Positions 1,886-44,479 of a stretch of DNA of 64,000 nt are shown piece by piece; positions within the stretch are counted from its first letter, which is position 1; the number at the start of each line of letters is the position of its first letter. Location of the stretch: NCBI GenBank assembly GCA_023213395.1, contig CM041465.1, forward strand, positions 89,721,741 to 89,785,740, in the 5' to 3' direction. The notes beneath the pieces were generated by a model, which was not told the origin of the DNA, did no database searches, and was given only the letters and a program-made list of their open reading frames with translations. Origin of the DNA: Cycas panzhihuaensis. Lineage: Eukaryota > Plantae > Cycadophyta. A program made the position numbers and the translations under genes.

Positions 1886-2098
1886 ATGTCCATCTACATC
1901 TTTACCGACGGCGGAAGCCACGGTAATCCTGGACCTTCCGCCGCTGCATGGATTCTCCGTAGCCCCTCTGGACACGATCTCCTCCACTCTGGGATCTTCC
2001 TTCCAGAGGCTACTAACAATGAAGTCGAATATATAGCTATTATTGAGGCCCTTACTAATGCCCTTTATTTCCATTGCGGATCCATCGTTTTGCTTTGC
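1886..2098 (+). pseudogene. Archaeal-type RNase HI (aRH), N-terminal half, interrupted by insertion
   Basis: MSIYIFTDGGSHGNPGPSAAAWIL...ATNNEVEYIAIIEAL contains the first two catalytic residues. The frame continues at 7935 once the insertion and one TSD copy are removed. Confidence 0.9.
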
Positions 2099-2217
2099 TG
2101 ATGGAAAAAATATGGAGCCAAAGTGCTCTGATACCAAATGATGGAAAAATATGGAGCCAAAGTGCTCTGATACCAAATGATGGAAAAAATATGGAGCCAA
2201 AGTGCTCTGATACCAAA
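2099..2217 (-). repeat. 3 tandem copies of a 40-bp unit containing the tRNA-iMet PBS
   Basis: TGATGGAAAAAATATGGAGCCAAAGTGCTCTGATACCAAA at 2099-2138, 2139-2177 (one A fewer) and 2178-2217. Confidence 0.97.
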
Positions 2218-2623
2218 TGTAGGAAAATATGCTTACAAACTAACAGGTTAGAACATATATCAAATAAGTATAAACTAGTATTGCATCAATACAGCAGTGT
2301 ATCACCATTACAATGGCATAAACACCTGAGAGCCTTGTTGTTCAATCCATTGTAGTAGAATGAGTATTACAAATCTTCCTCAAAAGTAGGTAGTGTCTAA
2401 AGACATCAGGGTTGTACACCCCTTAACATTTATAGTTTGGGGGAGGAGGGAAACTCCTCAACCCCTGAATTCAAATTAATAATAAAATAATACTAACTTA
2501 ACTCAAATGGAACTAACTCAACTTACCTTAACTTACCTTGACATGTTGAGCATCACATGTCTAAATTGAGGTGCACAATCTCGGTAGGTAAGAGGGAGTT
2601 GAGTGATGACATTACACCCAACA
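2099..2623 (-). repeat. 3' LTR (includes three PBS-containing units at the U5 end)
   Basis: Core 2218-2623 matches 7525-7929 with 7 substitutions and 1 indel by manual count. PPT lies immediately inside. Confidence 0.95.
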
Positions 2624-2634
2624 TTCTCCCCCTT
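2624..2634 (-). promoter_or_regulatory. Polypurine tract
   Basis: Minus strand AAGGGGGAGAA immediately precedes TGTTGGG of the 3' LTR. Confidence 0.9.
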
Positions 2635-2703
2635 AATGTCAGTACGAACACTTGTATCTTTTCCTTGAACTTGTGGGCGGTACTTGAAAAAAACTTTAAA
2701 ATT

Positions 2704-3324
2704 CTAATCTTGATCTTTGTCAATGCTTCTCACCCTTATAGTCACATATATCTCTTTATTATAGAATGATGTAGGAAGACTATAGGTAGATGAAACTTGA
2801 TGCAAAAGTAGATGAATAGCTATAATTTGGACTTGAACTTTTGTACACTTTATGCTTTGAACAGTTGTCATATCATCAGGTTCATTCTTCGTTATGTCAT
2901 AAGATTCGTCTTCATGATGCTCCCCCTCAAATGGAGGATCAAATCCTTGTGCAACAAGGTGGTCCTGCATTTGATCTGAATCTTCATTGGTGTTGCCGTT
3001 ATGATCTACCTGTTCTGTCACCTGTCTCACATGCTCATCAAAAGTTTCATCAAATACATTGGGGGTATCTCCCCCATAAATAGAAATCAATAAATCCCAA
3101 ACAGGCTTAGATGTTGTCAGTTCAGAAACCAGTGAAAAAATATCATCAGTAATAGTGCAAAATAATAAACCTAAAATTTCATTATCTTTTCTAAAGTTTT
3201 CTTTAATGCTAAGGTCAAATTCATGTTGTAAATACTTTAAAAGATCATGTTCAATAAAATAAGTTTGCATGGTGTCATACCATAGTGAAAAGTTATGGCC
3301 ATCGAAAATGGGGAATTGTGCCAT
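2704..3324 (-). CDS. Truncated Ty1/copia-type Gag (open 206-aa ORF)
   Basis: N-terminus PIFDGHNFSLW..M..Y....DL...L and KD...L..L...I.DDIF........K.VWD.L...Y are typical of the copia Gag N-terminal/UBN2 region. An acidic tail follows, with no zinc knuckle. Confidence 0.8.
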   Translation of the reverse strand: MAQFPIFDGHNFSLWYDTMQTYFIEHDLLKYLQHEFDLSIKENFRKDNEILGLLFCTITDDIFSLVSELTTSKPVWDLLISIYGGDTPNVFDETFDEHVRQVTEQVDHNGNTNEDSDQMQDHLVAQGFDPPFEGEHHEDESYDITKNEPDDMTTVQSIKCTKVQVQIIAIHLLLHQVSSTYSLPTSFYNKEIYVTIRVRSIDKDQD

Positions 3325-5402
3325 TTTGAAAGTAATTTAATCAATAAGAAAATGATGATAAGATCAAGTAGAAATCTTGAGTAAACAATGAGATATAAAC
3401 TAGAATTTTCTTTAAAATTTTGAAAGAAGACAAGCTTTTTAGGATGTATATATATGCTCAACTTTAACAGATTGAAAACTATATTGAATGAGGTCAGAAT
3501 AGCTTAAAATTTTATCAATATGTAGATTGCTGAGATGTGAATCCAATAAAATAAACGGTTTTGAAAATGGATACCAATAAATCACGTTTTGAATGAGGCA
3601 AAGGTATGAACCTCCTTGTGGAGCCTAACAGGAGCAAGGTAGGCAAAAATTGCATAAAAATACTAATTAACCCTTAGAAAAGATGAACAAATGATCAAAT
3701 ATTATTGATGAAGTAATTAATATTCTGCCAATTGAAAATTTTGAAAAATATATTAAACAGTTGTAAAAAATAACAGATTTAGGCCAATAGAATACCTCAA
3801 TTTTGACCGATTTGAAATATAAGAAAAATGTGTCAAAATATATGGAAAAATATATCACAATGAAGAGAATCACCACTTCCCAACGGTTTGACGGAAATGA
3901 AATCTGATAAAAATTGTAAAAGTTATAGTGAAAAATGTAACAAGTGTCTTTATGAAGGATGTTCAAGAAATAGGCAAAAACAACTAAATTTCTTATTTTA
4001 GCGATTAAAATATTAGTGAAGATGAACTCAAAAAATTAAAGTAGAAAATGGGTATTAAAGTTTATATGACGTAGATCACTATAGAGAAAATTTGGGCACA
4101 AAACAGTTTACCAGAAATAAATGACAGCCAGTTCTAAAACTGATTTTGTTAAAAATGTAAAAAATGCTGAAATTTTGAAAGTCCAATGTTAAAAAGGTCG
4201 AAACAAGGTCAAATGGGCACCAAATTGGTCTTATGACCAGTTGAAATCAGAGTACAAAAAATTTCTGATCTATTGGCGTAGGTTTCGTCTGAAACCGATG
4301 AGCCAACAGGAAGTTATGGCCACAAAAGCGCCAATAACCCTATGAAAAATAAAAATTTGAAAAAAAATAAAAGGAAAACGTTTAAAAACCTTTTTAAAAA
4401 TGGGTAGCAGTCACGTGATGGTGAAATAGAACTGAGGGCTGAGAGTTTAAACCCTTAAAATCGGATTTGAAAAAATCATATAATAAATCTTAATTTTTTA
4501 AACTTTATATTATTAAAACAATAGAAAATGATATTCCAGACGCGAATTATAAATCGAAATCTGCACACTTAAAGGGGCTGCACAAATGTAAATAAGAAAC
4601 GACTAATATATAAGAAAAGAGCTATCAATATATTAATGAAGTCGGCTGCCAATATATTAATGGTTGTGCTGTCCGCCGATATAATATATATGTAATATAA
4701 AAGCTGAAAACATTCAAGCGCCTTGTCATACCAACGGGAAAGGACAGATATATAATATAAAAGTCTGAAATGGGAAGATGAAACACAGAGCTGTTAATGC
4801 TGAAAATTTCAGACGCCAATGATAAGAAGTTGTGCCGCTCCCAACGCAGACGAGCGCCGAATGCAGACGCAAACGCCAATGCCAATGATAATCGAGAATC
4901 GCCGACGCCAGTGAAGTACTAGCCGTCTGGCGGGCAAACACGAGCAATACACTAGTTGCGCCAATTCAGGGTTCGAAGCAGAGTGCTGAACGTAATTATC
5001 AATGCAACAAACACGATTGCAATTATTAATGCAACAAACACGATTATTAATGAAGAGTGCGAATGCGATTATTAATGAAGAGTGCGCTGTTATCAAGTGC
5101 TGGACCGTAGGGCACCAGAACAAAACCACCGCGCATTTAAGATGCTAGAAAAGAAACCACCATGCACAAAAATGTGAGAGACGCTGGAAGAGAGACGCTG
5201 CGCAACGCGCCAATAATGAAGCCACTGCGGGCGTCGAGGATGCCAAACGCCATTATTAATGACCACCGCGGGCTGCGCGACGGGAGGAAAATGGGAAGAA
5301 CATTGTCAGTTAAATAGAAGACGAGAGGCACTGCACAGATTGCGCAGATCTGCAAACAATCCGTTGTCGTTGTACCAGAGGAGAGGAGGTTGTGTCACTC
5401 GC

Positions 5403-5846
5403 AACTGTGAGATTAAGAAAATTATATACGCCAAAGCGAATGAAAAGGTCACAAGCGATGTGGATCCTAATTTTTATCTTAAGTATACAGATATACATGT
5501 GAGCGTGCCTTGCGTGGAGCAAGACTTCATGCTAGAGCAGTTCACGCTGCACCAATGCTGGTTGAGGGATATTACATATGGTGCCCCAATCATTGTTGAT
5601 GTTGAATACACAAGAGGGAAAGAGATTATTTGAACGAAAAGAGAAAGAAGGGTAGGGAGCTCTTATAATTGGAAGAATGCCTATCATGCTACGAAGTTGC
5701 CGTTGTGTGCTCAAAAAAAAAAAAAAAAAGGTCTAAACTTGCAAAGTTTTGTAAATGTCCTCTTGATCCAGGAGGCTATTTTGTTGGTAAGGGGACTGAG
5801 AAGGTTATTTTAATCCAGGAATAGCTCTCCAAAAAATCGAATAATA
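5403..5846 (+). pseudogene. NRPC2: Captured fragment of RNA polymerase III second-largest subunit
   Basis: [28 protein letters not shown]...[23 protein letters not shown]...[16 protein letters not shown]...[38 protein letters not shown] and QEQLSKNR are RPC2-type rather than RPB2-type. Contains stops and frameshifts; no intron visible. Confidence 0.9.
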
Positions 5847-5891
5847 TTTTATAGTGTTTTTAACCTGAAGAGCCCTATGGTTGTTTTGTCA

Positions 5892-6060
5892 GATGAAGTG
5901 CAGGTCTTAAAGCATAAGATCTTATGGCTTGAAGCTAACAATGCAGCCCCAAGAAGAGCTACAGGAATGCCGTGATGGCTCTCAACTTCTCGTGGATCGT
6001 GCAATAGATCTATGGTTCAAAGAAGATGAACTTTGTCAATGGATACAAGAACTGAGTGGT
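5892..6060 (+). pseudogene. Captured fragment resembling the plant kinesin-4 (KIN4C/FRA1-like) post-motor coiled coil
   Basis: DEVQVLKHKILWLEANNAA/frameshift/QEELQECRDGSQLLVDRAIDLWFKEDELCQWIQEL resembles the remembered kinesin-4 stalk motif E.Q.LK.KI..LE..N.EL..ELQE.R......RA.D....KD.L...IE. Confidence 0.65.
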
Positions 6061-6077
6061 CAAGTTATATCCTTTAT

Positions 6078-6214
6078 CCAGAGGTCACAAAAGATGTTGT
6101 CACTATTGCAAAAAAATTGAGTTCAAAGACCAAGCAAAGAATGTTGGTGCAAGTCTTGTTAAGCAAGTTGCTAATGCAACCAATGATGCAACTGGAAATG
6201 GGACAACATGTGCT
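6078..6214 (+). pseudogene. HSP60: Captured fragment of mitochondrial chaperonin-60
   Basis: PEVTKDVVTIAKK/frameshift/EFKDQAKNVGASLVKQVANATNDATGNGTTCA matches plant mitochondrial PKVTKDGVTVAKSIEFKDK.KNVGASLVKQVANATNDVAGDGTTCA. Confidence 0.9.
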
Positions 6215-7470
6215 AATAACCTTGCATAATGAAGGACTTCTGGAAAACTATTGGCATATTAGTATGTGTATTTTATTTGTATTTTATAGAAATCGAAGTA
6301 TGCCCTTATTAGCTGAGGATGCAAAGAGGAGATGAAACTCTTCTCATATGCCTATCCTAAATCTATGATGAGCCTAATAATGGCTTCTACTTCCTGATAG
6401 AAAGTAGGAGGAAATGCCCAAAAAATGCAGGGATGTAATAGGAAAGCAGCAGAATGTAGAAAGCAGAATACAGAAACAATATGCCTTCTTTGGCCTTCAA
6501 GATAAACTATCAATAAAATTTTGAGAATTTTGTTGTATTCTTTTGTAAAGAATAAAGTAATTGATAGTTTTTGCACTCCTTTTTAGTCACAAATAAAAAT
6601 GCTTATGTGCATGAGATGTTAAAAAAATATGTAATGTAAAACATATGAGAAATGAAATATCAATGTGAGGAGCATACATTTTTCAAATATCTTGAAGAAG
6701 TATATCAAATAAATGAAATGCACATGTATTTGTATATGAAATATTTCTAAATCTGTGTATATATCAGAAATATGAGTTTAGATATGAAAATGTAATGAAA
6801 AACACAGTAAACGAATGTAATAGATTTATAGCTGAAAATAGGCTTCAAAAACTTCCAATATACAGATCTGCAATGTAATCTTCTCCAAAAATATTGAATA
6901 TGCTCCAGAAACTGTAGATCTGTAAAAAACTTGAAAATATAGTCAAACAATATAATGAAAAATATAGATCTGAAATGGATGTAGCAAAAAATGCTGAAAA
7001 TTTTTGATAAAATAAGCAGATCTATAATAAAATAGCAGATCTGAAGTAACAAATTACAGATCTTTAAAGAAAACTTGATAACTTTTGTATTCAGTTGATG
7101 CTCTTTTACAAATCTGTAAAAAATATCAAATAAATAGACAAATAACTTGTAAACTGTCAAAATATATGATAAATCTGTAGATCTGAACAGAAAATAACTC
7201 AAATATAAGAATAAACTTAGATGTATATCACTTGCTGCTGAAAATCCTTTGTAGATCTGCACAAATCTGAAAATAGATCTCAGTAATATTTGTTGAACCA
7301 GAAATATAGCTCAATAATAATAAAAAATGCTGAAATAATATATAGAACTTGCTAAAAATTTCAGAAAACCAATCTAGTTAATATATATTGCTTGTGAAAA
7401 AAAATCTGTTGTAGAATGCCAGAAGATCCTGTTGATCTTCTTCAAAACTTCAGCAGGTCAGCAATCGCCT

Positions 7471-7482
7471 GCTCTGATACCA
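7471..7482 (-). promoter_or_regulatory. Primer-binding site (tRNA-iMet)
   Basis: TGGTATCAGAGC on the minus strand, 2 nt after the 5' LTR end. Confidence 0.95.
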
Positions 7483-7484
7483 AA

Positions 7485-7929
7485 TGATGGAAAAAATATG
7501 GAGCCAAAGTGCTCTGATACCAAATGTAGGAAAATATGCTTGCAAACTAACAGGTTAGAACATATATCAAATAAGTATAAACTAGTATTGCATCAATACA
7601 GCAGTGTATCACCATTACAATAGCATAAACACATGAGAGCCTTGTTGTTCAATCCATTGTAGTAGAATGAGTATTACAAATCTTCCTCAAAAGTAGGTGG
7701 TGTCTAAAGACACCAGGGTTGTACACCCCTTAACATTTATAGTTTGGGGAGGAGGGAAACTCCTCAACCCCTGAATTCAAATTAATAATAAAATAATACT
7801 AACTTAACTCAAATGGAACTAACTCAACTTACCTTAACTTACCTTGACATGTTGAGCATCACATGTCTAAATTGAGGTGCACAATCCTGGTAGGTAAGAG
7901 GGAGTTGAGTGATGACATTACACCCAACA
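7485..7929 (-). repeat. 5' LTR (one PBS-containing 40-bp unit at the U5 end, 7485-7524)
   Basis: Direct repeat of 2178-2623, followed on + by the TSD TTTGC. Confidence 0.95.
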
Positions 7930-7934
7930 TTTGC

Positions 7935-8120
7935 GACTCTCAAGTTGTGGTGTCTCATCTCACCTAGGTTTACCAGGTGCGATGCCCTCACTTGAGGACT
8001 CTTGCTTCTGCTGCCAAATCTCTCCTGGCCTGCTTCTCTTCCATCGATATCCAACATATCCCTTAGGCCCTCAACACTGAGGCAGATAGTCTCGTTCGCC
8101 TCATCCTTGAGCGGCGCCTC
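7935..8120 (+). pseudogene. Archaeal-type RNase HI (aRH), C-terminal half
   Basis: DSQVVVSHLT*VYQVRCPHLRTLASAAKSLLACFSSIDIQHIP*ALNTEADSLVRLIL contains the DSQ and N..AD motifs. Two TAG stops at 7965 and 8064. Confidence 0.9.
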
Positions 8121-9027
8121 CCTCTCCTTACTGACTGTCCCTTAGGCTTGTCTGGCCTTCCTGTCGCCCAAGCCCCAGGTCGTCTTACACTTTGCTTTGC
8201 GACCCATTCGCACCTCCAAAACCTAGCTACTAATGAGGTAAAACTATGGTGCCTACCATTTGCTTACTCTTTACTTGATTATGCATGCTCTTTCACATCT
8301 TTTTTGGTGGGGGTAGCCCCCTCACCTTTCTCATTTTTCCAGTCAGTTCCCAGGTGGCTCATAGGCAGCCCTTATGTTGTCTCCACCGCTACTTTTGTAT
8401 CCACGCGTTCTGCCACGACACTTGTCGGCGCCCTTGCCTACTATTATGATCTTGATTGACATATCTATATACACATGTGCTCGATTGTGTTGCCAAAGAT
8501 TCGCCATCGCACTGTGCTTCCAAGCGACGAGGCTCACGCGCGAGGCGGTGTTTCCGGCCTCGGAATGGATACGGAATCACCGACTCAGGTAAGTGCAGGT
8601 ATGTTTCTCACCTTATCATTGCTTTCTTTTGATGAGTGTTTGCTTGCATGTCTGCATATTTGTGGCTTTGTAGGTGACTTTGTCTTCGTCTACACTTATT
8701 TTAGCCTATGACGACTATAGCAGGGGCACACTCCCAGCAAGTGTGGCACCCTGGTGGCCACTCCACTTCCCGCATCTGCCCTTCTCGCTCCAAGATCCAC
8801 TCGGTTTGCGCCACCTCCGCCCGTGTGATGACTCGTCATCGTTTGGTCGACTTGCCACACCGTTTGAGCCCTACTTTTGCTCTTTTGGACCTGTTTATTG
8901 GCTTGTGTACCCCTGGGTGGGTGTCTTAGCCCCCTATTAGCTCTTTTTGTCACCTGGCCCTAGCTTAGGCTGGCTAGTCGGGCCTGCTTTTGCCTCTGGG
9001 TTGATACCACTGAGATTTTCATGGTAC

Positions 9028-9063
9028 CGCCGGAATATCCGCGGTACCGCGGATTTTACGGCG
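9028..9063. repeat. 36-bp imperfect palindrome centred on GGTACC
   Basis: CGCCGGAATATCCGCGGT|ACCGCGGATTTTACGGCG, two mismatched pairs. Confidence 0.85.
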
Positions 9064-11261
9064 ATATGACTGTTCCTACTTGTTTCTTAAAATCTGCCGT
9101 GGCAATTTCGTATTTATTGCGAAGCTACCACGTGTCCCGTGACTTAACTCGCTCCCAACCATGTCCTAATCACTCGCTTTAGGGTTTGGGTTAGGTACTT
9201 AAGGCATGATCTACTCATTTTTAAGAATTTTTTGGCTCACTTTTTGGATTGCTCCTCAAGGAAACCACGCTGTGCTCTGCTCTTCTCTGTTGTCCTACTG
9301 CTACCATAGGACCTGCGTCTCTCCTACAGCATCCAGCTCTCCTTCGGTGTGGCAAGGACATCTTCCCAGCCCTTCACACACCTTAGAGAGGGCCCCTTGG
9401 AGAGATTTCAGTAGATTCTTGCCTCGGGCAGTCTTCAAGTGTTCCAAGTGTAGGTGTTCTCCTTTCAACTTTACTAGCAGGGTCCCAAACCTGCTACACT
9501 ACAGTTCTAGGCTGATTTCTCAGCCTCCCCTTGCCAGCCCTTGGCTGAGGCAAGCACCTTTCCTCCTCCACTCAGGTATTCATTGATTTGAGTTGTTTCT
9601 CTTGTGCTATTGACGCCCTAACTTGCTTGATTCTTTCTTGTCTTTGTGAGGGTTGTTTTCCTCTTTACATTAGGTTGTTCTACCTCTCTTATAGTGCCTC
9701 CTACCTACATTTGTTGCTCAAGGCAACGGTACTAAGGGTTGACATAAGTTTTGGGAAGGAGCTGGGTGGATTCCGCACCACCTTCCACGCTCCTCAAGTG
9801 GCTTTAAGCCCCCCAAATCTTCCCTCTTGCCTCGTGCTGTCCTTGGCACTCAAATGGGGGTTTGTTGGCCCTCTTTTAGCCACTGAAATCAGCGTTGTCA
9901 CAGGTTGCAGTGCTGGTTTGAGGACTTAGGCTTAGGTCCAGGCAACTTACGTAAGTCTCGACCGCTTGTTCTTGTCTAACTCTTTTTCCGGCAGCCCGGT
10001 TTGCTCTCCATAGCACCCCGATTTTTCGTAGGTCTTCTTTGGCTCCTTTTCACCCCCTTGTTACTATTTCCAGCCATCTCTCTTGGCCTTGCCCTCACTG
10101 CCTTATGGATTTTGGGGGGAGGTTAGGGTGTTCTTTGCAGGAGGTGGGCCACTCCGAGGCTTACCGGTTACTTTCCCTTCGCTTCGGTTGTCCTTTTTCA
10201 TATATTATCATCATTGTGTTGGTGCTAACATATACGTGTTTGAATTCATATTTGTATTATATAGACATGTATTATTAAGATCTCGCCATTGCATGTTAGT
10301 ACCCTTTCTCTGGAAAGGGAGAGGTCGTCGTTGCTTGCAGGTGCTTGGAGAGCGTGAAAGGTATTTTCTGCTTGTCCCATTCTTGGTAAGTGCTCCTACG
10401 CATGTTGTACTTTCATACTTCTTTAGTCACTAGTATTTAGTTCTTTTCTTTCCTTGGTATTGTACTTTAGTATTTTTCCAAGGAAGGTAAGGGAGCCCCT
10501 CTTTCCAATCCGCCATGACGCTTCGCACCCAACACACCTTGTAGAGTAGTTTGGTGTCCCTTGGGAGGGCCTTCGTCGCGCACGCCTCCAGTCCAGGTGC
10601 ATGCCTCACTCCACCCTACTACTCTTTTCTTTTGAATTCCTTTTTAGTAATTAACTCATCGGAGATCAAAAGGGAAACTTAACTTTGCTTTCGGTTTACA
10701 CTTTATTTGTTTTATTGCATGCATTTCTGCCACCCATAGGAAAAGGTCATAGGAACTGCTCCTTTTCACCTTTCCTCTCTATCTTAGCCATGCGAGCTTT
10801 TTGCCCTCCGTATTACTCGTATTGCCCAGTTAGTTTGCTTAGGCATACCTTGACCCATCTTCTTGGATCATTCCTCTTGCTTTCATTTGGTTCCCCGCCT
10901 CACCGGATAACCAAAGTGACCCCATCTATAGGCCAGTCGTTTGCCTATCCTTCTCCGTTTCCCGTTGCTTTAGGGAAACCCTTGAAGGCTCCTCCCCTTT
11001 CCCTTCCGGCCATCCAAGGGTGGAAGGATCCTTCCTTTAAGTCAACCCAGGCTAACCCTACGCCTCCTCACCCTTTGTTCGAAGTGGTGGAGAATCACCC
11101 TTTGGTAGCCACATTCCATCAGTGTCCCGAACTCAAGGCCTGTGCATGTGGTGCCCTGCGTGGTAATTACCCTACTTATAGGTCTCTTTCTTGATCACAT
11201 TATCACCCACTCTTACCACACTTATTTAGTTAGGTAGCTATCCCGTAGATGCGTGTCCACA

Positions 11262-14200: not shown

Positions 14201-14779
14201 AAGTTGGGGTTACAGATTTGTCCTAAAAATATGGTGATAGAAAAGAAGTAGGCCGAAATTAATTTTGTTGTAATTTTTGCACTTTCACCCCAAAATCTAT
14301 AGTGCAACCACTCAAAATTTATAGGGCGAGTAATTTCGTATCAAATTCACCCTCCAAGAACCCTTAATGGCACCTCCTAGGTCACTACTCTGATACCACT
14401 TGTAATGAACCATTACACCAATTGTAATGAACCTGAATCAAAAGAGAAAAATCTAATTACATATGGTAACACAAAAGTCAAAATTAAATATAAGAGTATA
14501 AAGCATCCATAATCACATGTATCAATGGGCCTCTTTAAGGGGGCAACCTCCAATACATAAGATAACAATACTTCCAGATGATTCTCTCTCCTACATTACA
14601 TACATATATATAGGGCTATTAAGACTGCCCATCTCTTGGACTTATGAATATGGGATAATTACAAGAATAGAAATATAAGATTTGAGAAGAAAAGAGATAA
14701 GGGTTGGGTTCTTAACAGTCCATCTCTAATGCTGACCATAACTATTGATAATAGATACTTGCTAGCTCCCACTATCACA
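11262..14779 (-). mobile_element. 5' half of a chromovirus-like (Reina/CRM-type) Ty3/gypsy element: LTR, PBS, gag, protease and start of RT
   Basis: PBS TGGTATCAGAGT at 14387-14398 and LTR inner end at 14401 (outer end about 14779, uncertain). Gag from about 13284 (PKVEIRKFNGKDVRTWVSQMEQFF), protease [34 protein letters not shown]...[11 protein letters not shown]...[13 protein letters not shown]. Cut at 11262 by the left-hand element. Confidence 0.85.
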
Positions 14780-37581: not shown

Positions 37582-40500
37582 TATTAAATAATGTCTAATG
37601 TTCTCTTTTAATATTACTTTATGTAACTCTATTATTGTAAGAATTGTTAAGAAGAGCAGTTATCTTTTCAATGAACCTCTCCACCTATTTATTCTCCTAG
37701 ATTCTAGGAAGAAAGAAAGGAAAATAAAGAGCAAAATGTAATAATTTGGTCAAGGTTACATGGAGACGATTATGAGGCTGCAGACATTGACAACTGTGCA
37801 TATTCTCAATTTTAGAGAGAGAGGATGAGATCCTTCTCTATATGTAATATATAATCTATTTATTTATTAATATATTTATATTTTGAGGTGGTTTTTTTAA
37901 ATCCCCATTAGGGGTTTTTTTTCACCTGTTTAATATCTATAAGTATTTGTATGATTATTATTTTTTATTTAAAGCAAATTACTTATTCTATTAACATTTA
38001 ATCAAATATTCCATCTCTCCATCATGGTATTAGAACAAGGTAGTTAACAAATTTAAAATAACATACAAAATTGTAATAAAATTTAAAACAACAAGATTTA
38101 CAAAATTTATACGAACAAAAATTTATTATTTTTTATTACATAGCTAACATCAATTTTTTTTTTTTTACATCTATCTTTTAGGTTTGGCCTACTAAGATTA
38201 CATAATGTCGAATACAAAATATATGTAAGGATATTATACAAAAACAGGTTGATAAACCCTCTCTCAAACATATTCTATGAAGACTACTGACATGAAACCT
38301 TAGTAAAGGGGAAATCCTTCATTTAGCATAGAAATTTACCTAAAACCACCTGCTACAACCTAGAGGAGATCTTTGCAGGACAAGCCATCTATGTGAAGTA
38401 GAAACCTCCAATATAACTTCATACTAAAAGGACACTAGAAATCATCCAAGTTTTGTGATGAGACAAAACCCTGACTAAAACCAAAGAGTGCCATTAATTA
38501 ATGCCAAGAGCATAAGTAAGATGCTGAGAACGTAGATGAGACATCAAGAGTGCAGATGAGATGCTAAGACATCAAGACCATTGATAAAGATGCCAAGAAG
38601 CACCTATGAAGACGCAAAGAATGATCCAGTCACTAATAAGTAATCAATACCCTCCTCAAACTTGCACAAGCTACATAGGAGTTTAGCATATGCCAAATCA
38701 GTTGATGCCTCCTCAAATCTTCACAAACTACATGAACGAGAGACTAGCATATGTCATATTAGTCGTTGCCTCCTCAAATCTGTGCAAATTACATGAACGG
38801 GAGCCAAGAATTCGCCATCATCTTTATGAATGAGTGAAACAAACCCTAGGGAATACTCCAATGAATGGTATTAAACACTTGTTTAATTCTTGGTTGGATC
38901 TGACTCCTTTGTTAAATCATAATAACATCATTATTACTTTAATAATAATTTTGAACCGCCTCCTTTAATAGATTATACTATTCTCGAACCCCTTTTAATC
39001 TTTAATAAATCTAACTTCTTCCTCAATTACATTTTAAGTAATTTTTTTTTTCCTTGTTTAAACATAAGAACCCACTTAATCCTTCATAATCATGCTTTAG
39101 TCAATTGATAAATCTAATTACATCCTAGTTACCCTTCCTTAATCATATTTTAATTTAGAAGGGTAGAACTTAAGATAGTTAAAGTTTTTCATATTTTCTG
39201 ATGTCTGATCTAACCTAAGTTATTATTAATATGTAAGCCCCCCCTATTGACCCTCACCCTGATCACTTAGGCCTCCTACATGACTCAGTCCAAGTAAACA
39301 AAGGGGTTAAACCCTTATTCAATTTTTTTATTTTTTCTTTCAAAGGGGGTACCTATGTTCTTTCAATTGTAACTTTCTTATACAAAGTCAGAATTTCATT
39401 CTGAAAGAAACATTAGATTCCTGACTCAGAAATAAACCTTTTTTTGTTGGTCTTTTAAATTCTTTTAACATCATTTTGAGCTAAAGATATTCGCTCCAAG
39501 ACTAGTCTTCTAATCAACCTAGTAAGATGAGGTACATGCTCTAAATTTATAATTTTTTCTCTTATACTTACTTAAAATACTTATCATAATGTTATTATGT
39601 CATTTTATGCAAACACTCAAATTAATAATTTAATACTTAAAATTATTTAATCACAATTATTATTATGATTTAATTATTAATTGATTAATGATTTTATGTG
39701 TTGAGCTAGTATTGTAATCTACTTTATCTTCACATATTGCCCAAATCTCTTTCTTTAAGAAGTTTTAAATTATTGGGTTTTCAACATGGATCTTATACCA
39801 AGAACAACCTCATGTGTACTAATTCTAGTGTTAATTGGCTCTAATTATGTCGACTAGAAAAATAGAATATCCCATCAACTTAAATAGTAGAAGATATGGC
39901 GATATATCACAAGTGAGTTTCCAAAACCTAAAGACAAAACATCAGAAGTGTATATAGTCTATCTGATGAACTGTGATGGAGCCCTATATAACATATTATC
40001 ATCCCTCTATCCAGACATTAGTAGGTAGTTCTCTGAAATAGATGATCTAGCCACTGTCTAGAAAACTCTTAAGGAAAAGTACGATAGGGTTGATACACAA
40101 TAATTAGTTGCTTTAGAATAATAAATGTATGATTTAAATTATGATTTTTTTTTTAAAGTTGAATATTTTTTGTCTAAACTTTAACTTATTAATAAAGACC
40201 TAATAAATTGTATCAAATCTTCTACAAAAGTAGGTGACAAAGAAGTTATTGTAACATGTGCAAAAGATGACGATACACTTGTCCATCTTGCAATTAACAT
40301 TTTACCAAAATAGTTTAATCTCTTCAAAACCGCTAGACAATAGGTAGGGCATCCACTAATTACTTTTGATCAATTAATGAATCAACTTATCGAACATCAA
40401 AACATGTTGATTCAGACTAAAAAATTAAAAGATCCTTCACAGACTCTTTTTTTTAAGTCACAATCATTTACTAAGTCTAAACATCAAAATAACTATCTAA

Positions 40501-43500: not shown

Positions 43501-44479
43501 ATAGATTTAGATTGGGCAAGAGACTCTGATGATCATAAATCTACTGCTACTTATGTTTTCTTTTTAGACTCTTTACCAATTACTTAGTCCATTAAAAATA
43601 TGCAAGCCTTAACTTTATCCATAATTGCAGTCGAATATCAAGCTCTTGTTGAAGCCAACAAAGAATCACTCTGGATCAAATATCTTTTAAATGAGTTTGG
43701 TTTATTTTCTAACTCACCCATTAAACATAATGTTGATAATCAAGGAGCCATATCTATTGCTACTAATCCAATTGCTCATTCAAGTACAAAACATATAGAA
43801 TTACATCAACATTTTATATGTAACTTTGTAAATGATAAAACTATTCACTTGTCTTATTGTCCTACAGATATACTGATTGTAAATATTCTTACAAATTTAT
43901 TGAATGAAGTAAAAATTTTAAAGCTCAGAGATTTGTTGCAGATAAAAGAAGTCTTCATCAAAGTGGGATCAACATGCTAAAGGCTTCTTCATCTTGTCCT
44001 TTGTTTTTTTAATTAAAAGATAACATTAAAGGGGGATGTTAAATAATGTCTAATGTTCTCTTTTAATATTACTTTATGTAACTCTATTATTAGAAGAATC
44101 ATTAAAAAGAGCAGTTATCTTTTCAACGAACCTCTCCACATATTTATTCTCCTAGATTCTAGGAAGAAAGAAAGGAAAATAAAAAACAAAATGTAATACT
44201 TTGGTTAAGGCTGCATGGAGACGATTATGAGGCCGCAGACGTGGTCAACTGTGTATATTCTCAATTTTGGAGAGAGAGGATGAGATCCTTCTCTATCTGT
44301 AATGTATAATCTATTTATTTATTAATATATTTATATTTTGAGGTGGCTTTTTTTAATCCCCATTAAGGGGTTTTTTCCACCTGTCCAATATCTGTAAGCA
44401 TTTGTATGATTATTATTTTTTATTTAAAGCAAATTACTTATTCTATTAACATTTAATCAAATATTCCCTCTCTCCATCA
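37582..44479 (+). mobile_element. Degenerate full-length Ty1/copia element
   Basis: LTRs 37582-38024 and 44037-44479, PBS TGGTATTAGAAC 38025-38036, PPT AAAGGGGGA 44028-44036, TSD GGCTT/GGCCC. Gag from about 39786, protease WILDSGASHHMTG, LWHARFGH, CEACV, RT LYIDDI, RNase H VDNQGAI..H..TKHI to 43980. Confidence 0.93.
38640..38810 (+). repeat. Three ~60-bp degenerate tandem repeats in the copia leader
   Basis: CCTCCTCAAA..T...CAA..TACAT recurs at about 38651, 38708 and 38769. Confidence 0.8.

Follow-up and report, generated by a model that had tools for sequence, protein, structure and literature searches.

Primer-site units inside the LTRs of a non-autonomous Copia-type element of Cycas panzhihuaensis, and similar arrays in unrelated retroelements

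In tRNA-Met-primed Ty1/copia elements, the primer-binding site (PBS) is placed only downstream of the 5′ LTR, at least in the parts of the published descriptions that we draw on (PMC6317226, 10.64898/2026.03.01.708851). An element found in a 64,000-nt stretch of Cycas panzhihuaensis DNA (hereafter the window) departs from the known non-autonomous Ty1/copia elements of those accounts, as it carries PBS copies inside both LTRs, and in unequal numbers. How can a primer site become LTR sequence, and when did the two LTRs of this element come to differ?

The answer depends first on where the element ends. It is a non-autonomous element of Copia type that occupies positions 2099 to 7929 on the minus strand (5,831 nt), between two plus-strand copies of the target site duplication (TSD) TTTGC, at 2094-2098 on the left and 7930-7934 on the right. 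Its insertion target was an older retroelement's RNase H frame, the left part of which (1889-2098, plus strand) matches positions 2 to 57 of the RVT_3 model, and the right part (7932-8084, plus strand, with stops) positions 67 to 116. Because the insertion splits this frame, the ends at 2099 and 7929 are independently supported. Short-read contigs also contain uninterrupted copies of the RNase H host family, in which letters like those of the left flank are joined to 7930 and the 5-mer is present once, as judged by eye from the majority letters. On the minus strand, the 3′ LTR (2099-2623, 525 nt) consists of a 406-nt core with TG...CA ends (2218-2623) followed by three units, and the 5′ LTR has a core of 405 nt (7525-7929). 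The two cores are 7 substitutions and 1 indel apart (K2P 0.0176), a divergence of 1.7% with a 95% confidence interval of 0.7 to 3.6%. A polypurine tract (PPT; 2624-2634, minus strand) adjoins the 3′ LTR, and the working PBS (7471-7482, minus strand), a 12-nt match to the 3′ end of tRNA-Met, lies 2 nt past the 5′ LTR. The complement of this PBS agrees with the tRNA-Met entry given in the relevant part of PMC5846777.

The element has direct TG...CA LTRs, a 5-bp TSD, a Met PBS at a distance of 2 nt and a PPT, the structural marks of a non-autonomous LTR retrotransposon. It further resembles the non-autonomous Ty1/copia elements of LARD size, as far as the accounts cited above describe them, in its length of 5.8 kb, its gag remnant and its lack of pol. 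The remnant is an open frame of 210 codons (2707-3336, minus strand) that matches Retrotran_gag_2 with an E value of 5e-06 and 26.5 bits, just below the curated cut-off of 27. The list of open reading frames contains no further long coding frame and no pol frame in the element. Two captured fragments of host genes lie antisense to it on the plus strand: one of the second-largest subunit of RNA polymerase (5223-5728), which has a terminal A-run of about 17 and is possibly a retrocopy, and a frameshifted one of chaperonin-60 (6030-6225). The element is of LARD size and non-autonomous, and its Copia descent is probable. Elsewhere in the window, a second PBS-like site (14387-14430, minus strand) follows a duplicated LTR-end-like motif of 11 to 12 nt, with a TGGT start lying between its two occurrences; it is possibly a decayed unit of another family, and no partner LTR was found for it within the window. 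A further pair of 441-nt repeats, 93% alike (37584-38024 and 44039-44479), probably represents the LTRs of another element.

Each unit consists of 2 nt (TT), the PBS, a 10-nt spacer and 16 nt that resemble an LTR end and finish in CA. In the 3′ LTR, unit 1 (2178-2217, 40 nt; PBS at 2204-2215) is followed by unit 2 (2139-2177, 39 nt, with a T-run one T shorter; PBS at 2164-2175) and by the terminal unit 3 (2099-2138, 40 nt; PBS at 2125-2136), the CA of which is the integrated end. After the only unit of the 5′ LTR (7485-7524, 40 nt; PBS at 7511-7522), which like the others reads on the minus strand, come TT and then the working PBS. The four units are alike except for that one T in a homopolymer run. 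The exact 12-nt PBS occurs five times in the element, and the window contains 7 matches when up to one mismatch is allowed, where 0.12 would be expected. Taken together, the TSD and the split RNase H frame place three PBS copies inside the integrated 3′ LTR, as assembled. Four PBS copies thus lie within TSD-bounded LTRs, contrary to the rule that a PBS is found only outside the LTR, and the unit count at the locus as assembled is 3 in the 3′ LTR versus 1 in the 5′ LTR. The first-pass annotation, made from the letters alone, had described precisely this arrangement, with three integrated units in the 3′ LTR and one in the 5′ LTR ahead of the working PBS, and these boundaries bear it out for the locus as assembled. 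A structural role for the RNA of the unit or junctions found no support, as its predicted folding was no better than that of shuffled sequences (z from 0.02 to -1.07).

The course of reverse transcription suggests how such units may enter the LTR. [quoted passage not shown] If synthesis is primed at the last PBS of an array, the units upstream of it would consequently be turned into LTR sequence. Minus-strand synthesis would start at the most downstream PBS, the upstream units would be copied as U5, and integrase is predicted to use the last CA of the array. A unit would persist in the LTR only if a CA end stood at the right spacing. We consider it likely that the extra units, each a primer site plus an LTR end, came to lie in the LTRs in this manner, with priming at the last PBS sweeping the earlier ones into U5 and the last CA being integrated.

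We looked for the unit in the element's own family by comparing positions 7380-8000 with short-read contigs from four runs with three organism labels (8,000 to 10,700 pieces each). A zero-unit form is present as a joint of 7494 to 7533 (run X6, one contig, depth 115). Its LTR ends like the unit, so that the 16-nt end of the unit is probably an LTR-end variant of the family and not merely a look-alike of the element's own core end. Among the 12 joints listed out of 37, six that go back onto the PBS carry spacers unlike that of the element, and therefore other unit types exist in the family. One go-back joint has part of the element's spacer in common and carries the final 25 nt of the LTR in duplicate; by eye, the unit of our element looks like a shortened version of it.

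A query spanning the unit region (2072-2166) gave summed contig depths of about 7e4 to 2.5e5 in all four runs, which came from four organism labels and four studies. It matched 32 pieces that were listed and 2,271 others beyond them. Unit-PBS-unit pieces account for 4 of the 32 listed (X1 record 1, X4 record 16, X8 records 31 and 32); all four fall short of the 31 letters on each side required for a bridge and hold 2 to 4 other letters, and contigs of this kind are unable to count as far as three units. Seven of the 32 are low-depth contigs (4.6 to 13.7) that stop matching at 2098-2099 and continue for 63 to 858 nt, and are probably other insertions that terminate with a unit. In none of the four runs was the left flank of the present locus covered, with about 46% of the three large runs read, which is no evidence of absence. 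By these contigs, the unit is a trait of the family, with zero-unit and other-spacer variants.

The contigs also bear on the source of the primer-site letters. Eighteen nucleotides is the length of tRNA that is copied before the modified A58. In two of the seven listed joints that abut the PBS, the PBS is lengthened to the full 18-nt tRNA-fragment sequence, as given in Table 3 of PMC5846777, and a third reaches that sequence with one mismatch. These joints are single contigs with depths of 4.9 to 17.5. They hint that a copy of the tRNA can become joined to an LTR end, and an ancestral 18-nt PBS would explain the same contigs.

To find such arrays in other elements, we scanned metagenomes for two exact PBS 12-mers 16 to 44 nt apart, which returned at least 112 loci, and viewed second LTRs within 3-kb flanks. 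The 112 loci listed form 43 sequence clusters with tandem PBSs; in 18 of them a CA lies at most 3 nt before both sites. None of the 112 resembles the Cycas element at the DNA level, and viral contigs gave no match. The CA before the second site, present in 18 of the 21 clusters that have the first one (background 0.25), was rejected as a sign of selection because any duplication that spans the junction necessarily takes the CA along, and because two PBSs were already a requirement of the pattern. A domain scan of 34 of the 50 listed frames, from 25 loci, found retroelement domains at six (L006, L007, L020, L038, which is weak, L044 and L059), a marginal match at L066, metabolic genes at L010 and L016 and nothing at the other 16. 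Some of the 43 clusters are therefore not retroelements.

Several loci show how arrays are transmitted. In L053/L054, an unrelated element with the TSD CAAGT, a PPT and LTRs 98.0% alike, both LTRs have two units and share a private variant of unit 2. Each LTR of L097/L096 likewise holds two units; ungapped mismatches number 3 and 3 in register versus 11 and 9 out of register, and unit 2 is longer by 1 nt in both LTRs. L058 is a solo LTR with two units and the TSD TGTCC. It has its right flank in common with L070 and L073, where the element keeps its internal region, and this common flank identifies a polymorphism between full-length and solo forms with a two-unit end. The full-length insertion (L070/L073/L087/L105/L109) has two 3′ units, and no 5′ partner appears among the matches listed. 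These three cases, L053/L054, L097/L096 and L058, show arrays being copied as U5 and the CA of the last unit serving for integration. As read from these alignments, arrays replicate as part of the LTR, and two-unit arrays have been inherited in register in two unrelated families.

Two further pairs have units in both LTRs. L059 has one unit in each, with LTRs 86% alike and an LTR start beyond the locus. L002 has two in each, with two unit variants in swapped order and arrays of 21-nt period at 300-353 and 1248-1290; neither a TSD nor a PPT was found there, and hence it is not a clean LTR pair. None of these four other pairs (L053/L054, L097/L096, L059 and L002) is asymmetric, which makes symmetric copying the norm; the sample is small, and the search pattern biases it. 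The count leaves out L048 (irregular junction) and L007; L007 has a duplication of PBS and leader without a CA end, and its 3′ LTR has no unit.

The remaining loci vary in form. L017, L033, L030 and other clusters are plain junction duplications, with the U5 end and the start of the leader both repeated. L001, L102 and L110 have up to five or six PBS units of 56 to 69 nt, with variable spacers after the CA end and an order of units that differs from contig to contig. In a Copia family (L005, L006, L008, L029, L071, L078, L093, L096, L097 and L111, with gag in L006), the CA stands directly before the PBS without a spacer, the units close with a short inverted repeat, and one to two units are seen. 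Longer minisatellites of 21 to 30 nt built on the PBS 12-mer occur in L021, in L004, L050 and L055, and in L072 and L074. Overall, the unit is a genuine LTR variant that is found across its family and recurs elsewhere, and the way in which it is inherited is well supported. The idea, also put forward in the first-pass annotation, that the array grows and shrinks and offers alternative ends agrees with the variation of unit number and spacer in the family and with the use of a unit end for integration here, in L053/L054 and in L058; for priming at inner sites there are just a few single contigs.

What, then, made the LTRs of the Cycas element unequal? A one-unit 3′ LTR would contain only 8 nt of internal homology, and slippage there would yield a unit with a core-type end; all three 3′ units have the unit-type end. 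On the 5′ side, the unit and the working PBS form a perfect 17-nt repeat. Given these different lengths of homology, the parent probably had three units, and the 3:1 ratio probably reflects the loss of two units from the 5′ array. We tentatively favour a loss during reverse transcription, by one of three routes. Slippage could occur in plus-strand strong-stop synthesis, or transfer could take place between two co-packaged RNAs that differ in unit number; as to a two-template origin of the LTR cores, one of the seven substitutions and the indel coincide with family variants among those listed. The third route would be an out-of-register second strand transfer. Each of the three routes would alter the 5′ LTR alone, in agreement with the polarity observed here. 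The first-pass annotation had singled out the third route; it stands as one possibility of three, with the drawback that it would leave an unpaired 3′ flap in need of trimming. Its broader proposal, that unequal numbers could arise within one replication round, is plausible, but the four other LTR pairs all have equal numbers and a deletion after insertion is about as likely.

Such a deletion is a serious possibility. The element would have integrated with three units in each LTR, and the 5′ array would have shrunk later, its perfect 40-nt repeats allowing genomic slippage or single-strand annealing. The LTR divergence of 1.7% implies an age sufficient for slippage after insertion, the 5′ array offers perfect repeats of 17 nt and longer, and the four other pairs are symmetric at the level of integration. 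That the four units differ by no substitution is uninformative here (P = 0.25, given an age equal to that of the core). However, two old pairs, 91% and 86% alike, keep equal numbers, although their units are non-identical and less slippery. Moreover, later shrinkage predicts no preferred direction, and the change is seen in the LTR that the reverse-transcription routes alter.

An assembly artefact, by collapse of the 5′ array or over-expansion of the 3′ array, appears unlikely. The locus itself was not seen in the short-read contigs, and unit 2 differs by homopolymer length alone, a typical sequencing error. Nevertheless, the unit and the unit-PBS-unit pieces occur in independent short-read contigs, and multi-unit arrays with private variants are present in other families, so that an artefact could affect the count at this locus alone. 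Least probable of all is integration with one unit in each LTR followed by expansion of the 3′ array to three, for although the units are identical but for one T and one-unit forms are the commonest in an unrelated family, the one-unit 3′ LTR has no long repeat, its best homology of 8 nt leads to core-type ends, and the expansion would need a 2-nt slip or else conversion from a paralogue. The order given to these four origins is a matter of judgement and was not computed.

In its working, the Cycas element is comparable to a standard tRNA-primed element of Copia type with several primer sites on its RNA, and other systems offer parallels. Voronin and Pathak reportedly described in 2004 engineered retroviral vectors with two PBSs on one RNA, either of which can initiate; those sites are said to have been artificial and widely spaced. 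The sites of the Cycas element, by contrast, occur naturally at a spacing of 40 nt; an attachment end is restored by each of them, and the array can be inherited. LTRs can also differ at integration in HIV-1, where 26 of 88 proviruses had asymmetric LTRs and an intermolecular plus-strand strong-stop transfer between two templates was proposed; those cases, in the part of the report we rely on, are mostly deletions into the 3′ LTR and not changes in the copy number of a primer-site unit (PMC9278108). Two-template switching is described for the plant Copia element Tnt1, in the section of that study used here (PMC2923131). The multiple PPTs of Sireviruses are likewise repeated priming signals at the LTR junction of plant Copia elements, and constitute a mirror-image case: they are plus-strand signals outside the LTR that, in the account as we have it, never become LTR sequence (PMC2829016). 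In Cassandra TRIMs (PMC7215508) and Tf1/Tf2 tandems (PMC11042837), the PBS is tandemly repeated and its homology can drive recombination, but what is repeated in the relevant passages is the whole LTR plus internal domain, whereas here it is a 40-nt junction. A tandem-array TRIM of the Cassandra type, which needs that larger repeat, was accordingly rejected for the present element with its units of 39 to 40 nt. We found no title or abstract on natural tandem PBS arrays in LTRs, in a literature where 'PBS' is a noisy search term and older or subscription descriptions may exist.

Of two working rules of LTR annotation, these observations break the one that puts the PBS outside the LTR and, depending on the timing of the 3:1 difference as weighed above, may also break the one that expects both LTRs to be alike at birth. 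In families with arrays, boundary calls, LTR-based dating and PBS-primed assays would be affected; ALE-seq, as outlined in its description, relies on PBS-specific primers (10.1101/2020.01.24.919167). PBS-directed small RNAs, for example miR845 or 3′ tRNA fragments, could, by inference, find additional targets or decoys in the extra PBS copies. Arrays also mark the strand-transfer register in a natural and countable way, readable in any long-read genome. That they recur in unrelated families points to a general side effect of tRNA priming and not to a curiosity of one locus. More speculatively, many families of LTR retrotransposons may grow the end of their U5 by taking on spent primer-site junctions: each unit could prime and could end integration, reverse transcription could add or drop 5′ units, some units might be renewed from a tRNA copy, and insertions might be born unequal.
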